From Candidatus Falkowbacteria bacterium (GTDB lineage Bacteria > Patescibacteriota > Patescibacteriia > Patescibacteriales > UBA12075): a stretch of 64,000 bases of DNA. The position numbers were made by a program, and so were the translations under genes. The notes below the pieces were generated by a model, which saw nothing but the letters and a program-made list of their open reading frames with translations, was not told the origin of the DNA and ran no database searches. Below, piece by piece: positions 1-484 of this stretch; the first letter of the stretch is position 1, and every line of letters begins with the position of its first letter. Location: NCBI GenBank assembly GCA_043801965.1, contig JAZDLN010000012.1:11115-75114 (forward strand), written 5' to 3'.

Positions 1-23
1 CCGCCCTGCGTGCGGGCGAGGGG
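1..23. repeat. GC-rich palindromic element, right end (truncated by window edge)
   Basis: CGCCC-tgcgtgc-GGGCG hairpin followed by GGGCGAGGGG. This is the same terminal motif as GGGGCGAGGGC at 36607-36617 and GGGTGAGGGC at 475-484. Confidence 0.5.
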
Positions 24-57
24 AGATATCTAAAATGTTTTATGGGAGCGGGAATGT

Positions 58-408
58 ATGCACAAAATAACCAAAGTTATTACTGCTCAGGAATTCAGGA
101 AAAAACCGACAATATCCGAGAGGGTAATGTGGAACGCTTTGCGCAACCGTCAGTTTTTAAATCTAAAATTCAGGAGACAGCACGTTATCCGTGGTTATAT
201 TGTTGATTTTTTTTGTGCCGAATTGAAATTGGCTGTCGAGATCGATGGTCCCGTTCACGCTGATATCGAACAAAAACAATATGACAGAGAAAGACAGGCA
301 GACTTGGAAAATTTAAGCATAAATTTTTTTCGGATAACCGATGACGAGGTTGAACGAAACATCGGCCGAGCTTTAGAAAAATTATATTTATTCATAAATA
401 AGCTTTAA
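58..408 (+). CDS. DUF559 (Vsr-like PD-(D/E)XK) endonuclease-domain protein
   Basis: 116-aa ORF with the motif series RKKPTxSERxMWNALRNRQ..KFRRQHVI..YIVDFFC..KLAVEIDGPVH, typical of DUF559 / very-short-patch-repair-like endonucleases. GC-rich palindromic repeats lie on both sides. Confidence 0.8.
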   Translation: MHKITKVITAQEFRKKPTISERVMWNALRNRQFLNLKFRRQHVIRGYIVDFFCAELKLAVEIDGPVHADIEQKQYDRERQADLENLSINFFRITDDEVERNIGRALEKLYLFINKL

Positions 409-432
409 TATCTATTTTGTCATTATCCTTAA

Positions 433-484
433 CCCCTCTCCCGCGCGAAGCGGGGGAGAGGGTGGCCGAAGGCCGGGTGAGGGC
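433..484. repeat. GC-rich nested palindromic element (copy R1)
   Basis: CCCCTCTCCC-gcgcgaagc-GGGGGAGAGG hairpin, then a GGCC-gaa-GGCC hairpin, then GGGTGAGGGC. Same family as 36470-36617, 37766-37809 and 41384-41481. Confidence 0.8.

Follow-up and report, generated by a model that had tools for sequence, protein, structure and literature searches.

A DUF559 endonuclease gene and its flanking triplex-motif palindromes as a candidate homing-type selfish element

At one end of a 64,000-nucleotide stretch of a Candidatus Falkowbacteria contig (JAZDLN010000012.1, positions 11,115 to 75,114; hereafter the window), a small DUF559 gene lies between GC-rich nested palindromes, an arrangement that raises the question of whether gene and palindromes are chance neighbors or parts of one genetic unit. 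The initial annotation, made from the letters alone, had ventured that the endonuclease and the palindromes form a selfish or homing unit and that solo palindromes elsewhere in the window are its non-autonomous footprints. Across bacterial phyla we found that gene and palindrome are associated, that the pair resides in frame within host genes, that its presence is polymorphic among close relatives, that it has spread between hosts, and that solo palindromes and full units occupy the same sites. The enrichment and the polymorphism support a selfish unit of this kind, in which DNA cutting and movement would be the conjectural steps, and we consider it rather probable, from sequence comparison, that the window gene and its triplex-motif (TM) palindromes are a free-standing copy of a widespread homing-type selfish element.

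The window holds a single DUF559 gene (58-408, plus strand), a free-standing reading frame of 116 residues whose earlier assignment, together with that of a full palindromic element at 433-484, was confirmed. The protein matches Pfam DUF559 (PF04480) with an E-value of 7.5e-29 and 100.2 bits against a gathering cutoff of 20.6, and an 'endonuclease domain-containing protein' of a Candidatus Falkowbacteria metagenome-assembled genome has the same sequence (100% identity); the match of the window protein to NCBIfam PRK09767 falls under the equivalog cutoff. Among structures in the PDB, the window protein itself matched 3hrl, a solved DUF559 structure (E 4e-11), and a profile of its homologues matched 3hrl (2e-27), the catalytic domain of I-Bth0305I (3r3p, 4.7e-7) and PvuRts1I (5e-4). 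The residues E61, D63, H67 and D76 (E-x-D-x3-H ... D) are intact in the window protein, invariant across 32 aligned homologues, and also kept in the DUF559 copies that sit in frame within host genes. One PD-(D/E)XK group holds Vsr, DUF559, DUF2726 and I-Bth0305I (PMC3424549), and the EDxHD enzymes are a recognized homing endonuclease family known in introns, inteins and 'fractured genes' (PMC3239194, PMC2677866), I-Bth0305I itself being a group I intron homing endonuclease (PMC3239194). With its conserved active site and its kinship to a proven homing enzyme, the window protein is a predicted nuclease, a Vsr-like PD-(D/E)XK endonuclease of the EDxHD type. A search for intron RNA returned no Rfam family at gathering score anywhere in the window.

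The palindromes belong to a family already described in other bacteria. The TMECO intrastrand triplex motif, formerly BoxC and PIT, has the form CCCTCNCCC-N3-6-GGGNGAGGG-N3-GGGNGAGGG and occurs in 23 copies in E. coli MG1655 and in 3610 copies in 262 proteobacterial genomes, with GC-rich triplex motifs reported from cyanobacteria as well (Holder et al. 2015, PMC4666352). According to the same study the motif forms a triplex in vitro and its loci are more rearranged between E. coli strains, the MG1655 copies are always intergenic with no tie to transposons, phages or plasmids, E. coli BoxC is frequently arranged in inverted pairs with a short spacer, and earlier work on these elements had found no promoter or terminator activity; the word 'endonuclease' appears nowhere in that paper (PMC4666352).

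The full unit of the window (433-484, plus strand) begins 24 bases past the DUF559 stop codon and follows the same sequence logic of CCCTCNCCC, loop, GGGNGAGGG, loop, GGGNGAGGG, with a Y-arm, the R-arm that complements it and a third block rich in purines, all on one strand (CCCTCTCCC / GGGAGAGGG / GGGTGAGGG). The Y-arm at 434-442 pairs with the R-arm at 454-462, and the third block occupies 475-484 as GGGTGAGGG(C), that is, GGGTGAGGGC. Folded as single-stranded DNA the unit reaches -18.7 kcal/mol (z = -3.9), a value equaled by none of 200 shuffles, and by eye its base triples (G*G, A*A, T*A) are permitted ones. Unlike the published motif (loop 1 of 3-6 nt, loop 2 of 3 nt), it has loops of 10 and 13 nt, each forming its own mini-hairpin (444-452 and 464-474); the published spacing is found in the window at 36501-36539 on the minus strand, where the loops measure 6 and 3 nt.

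Upstream of the gene, positions 1-23 (plus strand) carry a mini-hairpin followed by a third block, GGGCGAGGGG (14-23), with one mismatch to GGGTGAGGG. The initial annotation had taken this stretch for the end of a palindrome, and the block at 14-23 agrees with that assignment, while the fragment, cut by the window edge, folds non-significantly by itself (z = -0.55). In the relatives L001, L086 and L090 a complete element stops 12-35 nt ahead of the DUF559 ATG, and it is by likeness to these three that we read 1-23 as the 3' end of an upstream element. The window copy has the layout of a gene between palindrome units, in direct repeats of hairpin-O_R, and not the tidy inverted-repeat layout. 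For the window itself, with an intact gene, one full unit, one cut unit and four more palindromic loci, the case is one by analogy with the loci described below.

Gene and palindrome across phyla

The 80 best DUF559 loci, picked by protein similarity alone from one-genome-per-species contigs, span Patescibacteria, Spirochaetota, Chloroflexota, Bacteroidota, Cyanobacteria, Proteobacteria, Gemmatimonadota, Planctomycetota, Elusimicrobia and others, and nearly all of them bear like sequences adjoining DUF559. We counted perfect hairpins with a stem of 7 bp or more and a pyrimidine-rich arm. Their density was 3.45 per kb up to 250 bp from the gene, compared with 0.060 per kb in the control DNA lying more than 1 kb away (1.0 Mb), a 58-fold difference that became 67-fold (2.67 vs 0.040 per kb) for hairpins followed by a third block. 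At least one flanking hairpin was present in 67 of the 80 loci. That the pairing is recurrent rather than accidental had been suggested at the outset, with enrichment near DUF559 genes named as the test, and these densities bear the suggestion out.

The consensus motif is a hairpin CCCTCTCC...GGAGAGGG followed by the third block, which reads GGGTGAGG in 70 of 105 units irrespective of phylum. Because the third block hardly varies, its covariation with the hairpin left little to measure and the test was uninformative (7.41 allowed triplets vs 7.33 permuted). The idea that the arms are selected as stop-free in six frames was rejected, since 9% of the 105 units are open compared with 27.5% of shuffles and GGGTGAGGG itself contains TGA.

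Around the gene the units are arranged in four ways: as O_L-hairpin...gene...hairpin-O_R (L007, L059, L080, L088 and others); as the mirror image of this, in high-GC viral-bin contigs; as direct repeats of hairpin-O_R on both sides, in the HsdR inserts and in the window; and as a gene between two complete solo elements (L002, L003, L086, L090). The canonical inverted layout accounts for 16 of the 80 loci under a strict test and 45 under a loose one, with the other layouts common, and what can safely be said is that DUF559 has one or two motif units on each side. Viral contigs contained distant DUF559 relatives only, of which the high-GC ones are the mirror-layout copies and have a related palindrome, a finding that says little on transmission. 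In a survey of programmed inversions, 'DUF559 domain-containing protein' was 14-fold enriched among predicted inversion targets (PMC9881135), as is expected of genes bracketed by inverted repeats.

Translated palindromes appear at the ends of DUF559 proteins. The initial annotation had described SPLPxGEG-type N-terminal extensions and taken them to be spurious; such tails are real (PLSREGEG, for example) and occur in 13 of 61 database homologues, but most of those sampled here stand at the C-terminus, and many are genuine fusions in frame with a host protein. The DUF559 gene ycjD of E. coli K-12 likewise ends in ...SPSP*, and copy no. 9 of the 23 published TMECO copies lies 168 nt downstream of it on the same strand; between the ycjD stop codon and this BoxC unit is a partial duplicate of the ycjD 3' end (L081-L083, fabI-ycjD-sapF). 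A clean empty site in E. coli was considered and discarded: ycjD and BoxC are missing together from ~2000 of 5426 complete genomes, but the eefRABC efflux island is found there instead.

Among 120 metagenome loci (707 kb) seeded with the strict motif, DUF559 occurred in three, in all three at 11-46 bp from the seed. In open-access papers and bioRxiv, with subscription-only literature outside the search and an earlier description there possible, we found no report of the link between repeat and nuclease, nor any of DUF559 inserts that lie in frame between such palindromes with no intron or intein. Repeat and nuclease are each known already.

Residence and polymorphism within host genes

In 18 of the 80 loci the DUF559 frame runs on without a stop for more than 120 codons in both directions. 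Pfam identifies the hosts as the type I restriction subunits HsdR (8 loci) and HsdM (6 loci), an N6_N4 methylase, the tRNA-modification GTPase MnmE and a YgiQ-type radical SAM protein (2 loci, one site); the methionine synthase MetH of Flavobacterium carries two DUF559 inserts, and one-sided fusions involve MmeI-like, HsdS, amidohydrolase, nucleotidyl-transferase and NUDIX proteins. The insert cleanly parts the Pfam domains of the host into two stretches, and the protein runs from host sequence through PSP..PLP.GEG, often (H/N)YRGGFDFSG, the DUF559 core and PSP.GRG.GEG back into host sequence. No Hint/intein domain was found by Pfam in 20 fusion open reading frames (ORFs), which contain host domains and DUF559/MTES_1575 only. 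As the reading frame is kept through the whole unit, the simplest reading is that the insert is translated and stays, unspliced, in the host protein.

Solo units are also found in frame. Of 106 solo units at the metagenome loci, 21 have a reading frame that continues without a stop for 100 residues or more to either side. Loci L270, L276, L201 and L243 place solo units in multidomain proteins, namely in the interdomain linker of PutA, twice in a PKS/PUFA-synthase-like protein, and in proteins of the HemN-like radical SAM and xanthine-dehydrogenase types.

Insertion polymorphism, to which the initial annotation had looked as a further test, is present in Flavobacterium MetH as pristine, solo-palindrome, single-insert and double-insert alleles. 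Among the 120 best relatives compared, MetH has no DUF559 in 23, one in ~85 and two in 12, and every combination is seen at the two sites in host sequence that is 94-97% identical in aligned representatives. Site 2 reads ...DDDIEL-TDENGKPLQT-FLTLRQQ in the pristine state and IPPAPEGGAATKQV in the solo-palindrome state, and holds the full unit in the third. At the DNA level, compared for one pristine and one solo species, the solo form is the left-end unit CCCCCC-AG-CCCCC-GAA-GGGGG. The solo forms make up a decay series (PPAPEGG, PLTPEGG, SLTSEGG, PTTNNQQP), which favors footprint after loss in that lineage.

A second example comes from HsdM, where site 2, following the TYHAWR motif, is empty in L027 and L077, solo in L041 and full in L023. 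The L041 solo unit is CCCCTCTCCC-CGT-GGGAGAGGG-CCA-GGGTGAGGG, translated as SPLPVGEGQGEG. Together with the MetH decay series, these states lend support to the proposal that solo palindromes are non-autonomous footprints of the full unit. The same L041 HsdM gene (Latescibacterota, 8645-11050) combines three inserted features, namely an in-frame DUF559 unit, the solo TMECO unit SPLPVGEGQGEG and a GIY-YIG domain (residues 676-745) that has no palindromic flanks.

The inserts have also moved between hosts. Those of HsdM and HsdR are 55-68% identical, the host proteins being unrelated, and the L035 HsdR, which shares 35% identity with the other HsdRs and is interrupted at a different site, carries an insert 52-61% identical to theirs. 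One insert lineage has thus colonized at least four sites in two protein families.

Among the nearest relatives of the window DUF559, two low-GC metagenome contigs (L088 and L089) share an identical DUF559 unit and a downstream RecQ-like gene, and their similarity ends ~12 nt beyond the left palindrome, a rearrangement boundary at the element edge.

Origin of the unit and alternative accounts

A homing-type cycle would unite these observations. The nuclease would break DNA at or near the motif or the empty allele, the break would be repaired by copying the donor copy, as in homing, and the conserved palindromes could serve as portable homology, as recognition sequence or as both. Translation of the palindromes into Pro/Gly-rich stretches (PSP..GEG) may provide a flexible linker, in which case only tolerated in-frame insertions, in loops or interdomain linkers, would survive; loss of the gene would leave solo palindromes, which would then decay. 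On the best reading, solo palindromes are leftovers of the full unit or its landing pads. Such an element would need neither intron nor intein because it would survive as a translated, unspliced domain between palindrome-encoded Pro/Gly linkers, even in enzymes as essential as MetH and MnmE. More tentatively, and with slightly less conviction than we would need to call it likely, we propose that BoxC/PIT/TMECO, a repeat of hundreds of bacterial genomes that has lacked an explanation since the 1990s, represents an autonomous DUF559 element by its ends, its remnants and its landing pads, and that this element would form a distinct class of selfish DNA.

Rickettsia palindromic elements (RPEs), reportedly described by Ogata and colleagues in 2000 as inserted in frame and translated within protein-coding genes, are similar palindromic repeats tolerated at surface sites. 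RPEs have no known autonomous partner and are not known outside Rickettsia, whereas here a nuclease gene goes with the repeats and the family extends across many phyla. REP/RAYT and IS200/IS605 systems also have short GC-rich hairpins flanking a small nuclease gene and many solo copies per gene, but the enzyme here is of the PD-(D/E)XK and not the HUH Y1 type, the repeats lack a GTAG/CGTC tag, and their units are read in frame as protein. Inteins with homing endonucleases resemble the inserts in lying in frame at conserved or loop sites of essential proteins and in being present or absent among close relatives; unlike them, the DUF559 fusions have no Hint or splicing domain in the 20 ORFs and show no sign of removal from the protein. 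Vsr, the very-short-patch repair endonuclease, belongs to the same superfamily group, yet no cytosine methylase adjoins the window gene and the genomic behavior is that of a selfish insert, not a repair gene. The closest parallel in enzyme type is with the EDxHD homing endonucleases (I-Bth0305I, PMC3239194; the 'fractured gene' enzymes, PMC2677866), which share the catalytic fold and motif, as in the profile match to 3r3p, and a selfish residence within conserved genes. Theirs is a residence in group I introns, in inteins or between split-intein halves, with extra DNA-binding domains, in contrast to a DUF559 of ~110 residues that is flanked by palindromes, has no intron or intein that we could find and is kept in the host protein. 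Compared with the published account of BoxC/PIT/TMECO, with which the window units share their dispersed, multi-copy nature and, across the family, frequent inverted pairs, the motif is here tied to DUF559 and also occurs in frame inside proteins.

Should this account hold, it would point to a concrete origin, open to testing, for repeats whose biophysics has been studied but which have no known source or function, and would give a biological role to DUF559, which is widespread in bacterial phyla and annotated as of unknown function. Beside RNA splicing and protein splicing, homing-type nuclease genes would have a third means of residing in essential genes, by staying in the protein as a tolerated domain. 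For annotation, one element would explain 'PSP..GEG' tails, oversized MetH, HsdR and HsdM proteins and 'DUF559 domain-containing' housekeeping enzymes, and a nuclease with a conserved motif could give a new specificity for DNA tools.

Several observations weigh against a homing-type element. Flanking hairpins are absent from 13 of the 80 DUF559 loci, and ~97% of strict motif copies have no DUF559 nearby, a ratio of solo to gene-bearing copies of ~40:1. In E. coli lineages that lack ycjD, other portions of the ycjD-BoxC query still find a match. Upstream units are of the minus type in 27 loci and the plus type in 20, and downstream units of the plus type in 35 and the minus type in 16, so that orientation is not fixed and a simple terminal-inverted-repeat transposon fits poorly. 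At each MetH site the full unit takes the place of a 24-30 nt linker and is no clean insertion, no target-site duplication was seen at either junction, and the pristine sites are unlike the palindrome, which leaves the first arrival at a new site unexplained. The identity between inserts at HsdR site A rises with that between their hosts (r = 0.76), indicating that much of the spread may be long co-descent with a mobile restriction-modification gene and not recent homing.

Were DUF559 a cut-and-paste or hairpin-processing nuclease acting on palindromic ends, as in RAYT/REP or TnpA/IS200-IS605, with the solo copies as miniature inverted-repeat transposable elements mobilized in trans, the common inverted-repeat layouts (L007, L059, L080, L088 and others), the mirror layout of the high-GC viral-bin contigs, the excess of solo copies, the inverted pairs of E. 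coli BoxC (PMC4666352) and the related inserts at no fewer than four different sites of restriction-modification genes would all follow readily. The same account struggles with MetH junctions that have no target-site duplication, with flanking units that vary in orientation and number, direct repeats as in the window included, and with the divergence of the two inserts within one metH gene, which are not near-identical, and we regard it as unlikely. No ~110-residue PD-(D/E)XK nuclease is known to transpose DNA alone; TnsA needs TnsB. Somewhat less probable still is a functional linkage that involves no mobility, in which the palindromes are unstable non-B DNA (triplex or cruciform) and DUF559 is a resident structure-specific repair nuclease kept nearby, like Vsr beside Dcm. 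The Vsr-like nature of DUF559, the triplex formed in vitro and the rearranged motif loci of E. coli (PMC4666352), and the loss of homology ~12 nt outside the element in L088/L089 are in keeping with it, but it leaves unaccounted for the in-frame residence in metH, mnmE and ygiQ with conserved nuclease residues, the polymorphism in all states and the shared insert lineage in unrelated hosts, and the gene is absent at most motif loci.

That the palindromes are ordinary expression signals (terminators, mRNA stabilizers or insulators) gathering in intergenic DNA, with DUF559 between two of them by chance, is suggested by the window, where all copies are intergenic and several stand directly past stop codons (of DUF559, dnaK and an htrA-like gene). 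It is nevertheless very improbable in view of the 58-67-fold enrichment beside DUF559 in 80 unrelated loci, a near-gene density that would stay several-fold higher even were all distant copies intergenic, the translation of motifs within host proteins, the missing T-run 3' of 433-484 and the lack of promoter or terminator activity in earlier work (PMC4666352). Least probable of all, to the point of being nearly negligible, is that DUF559 is a bystander and that the window palindromes are mobilized, as REPs are, by the IS200/RAYT-like gene at 15384-16112 (plus strand, right after a SecA-like C-terminus). This ORF has a weak IS200/Y1_Tnp match (E 2.6e-4) and an HUH-like motif, 'MPNHFHGII'; the match scores under the Pfam cutoff, the gene is not flanked by palindromes, and across phyla the partner of the motif is DUF559.

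Remaining palindromes and neighboring features of the window

Beyond the DUF559 locus the window contains four other palindromic loci, which we infer to be non-autonomous copies of the element. A hairpin at 1046-1079 (plus strand, z = -2.8) has the CCCGACGCTTCGGG module, which recurs within the elements at 36587 and 41452, but no CCCTCTCCC arm, and its membership in the family is loose. A composite solo element 3' of dnaK (36470-36617, z = -4.6) extends from GCCCTCACCC to GGGGCGAGGGC with three inner hairpins and includes the sub-copy of published spacing mentioned above. A solo TM unit in an intergenic gap (37766-37809, plus strand, z = -2.9) consists of a degenerate Y-arm, GGGGGAGAGGG, TTG and GGGGTGAGGGC. 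The solo nested palindrome after the htrA-like gene (41384-41481, z = -8.2) has an outer stem of GCCCTCACCC / GGGTGAGGG around a 15-bp CCCTCTCCCGCGACT hairpin and a CCCGACGCTTCGGG hairpin. Over the whole window, GGGTGAGGG with at most one mismatch occurs 21 times, compared with 10.3 +/- 3.1 in shuffles, none of which reached 21.

Other repeats in the window are unrelated to the DUF559 elements: CGCATAACG/CGTTACGCG arrays at 44694-44788, a perfect 19-bp palindrome at 18458-18498, a 31-nt AT-rich inverted repeat at 9275-9356 and a 15-nt tandem duplication at 63861-63890. The ORF at 15384-16112 contains in-frame GC-rich tandem repeats of 15 nt x2 (15681-15710) and 18 nt x5 (15750-15839), encoding APTAFR/APTTFR. 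Just downstream of the DUF559 locus, a plus-strand gene at 1116-5027 encodes a protein of 1303 residues with a Zn-phospholipase-C-like N-terminus and staphylococcal-nuclease and lamin-tail domains.

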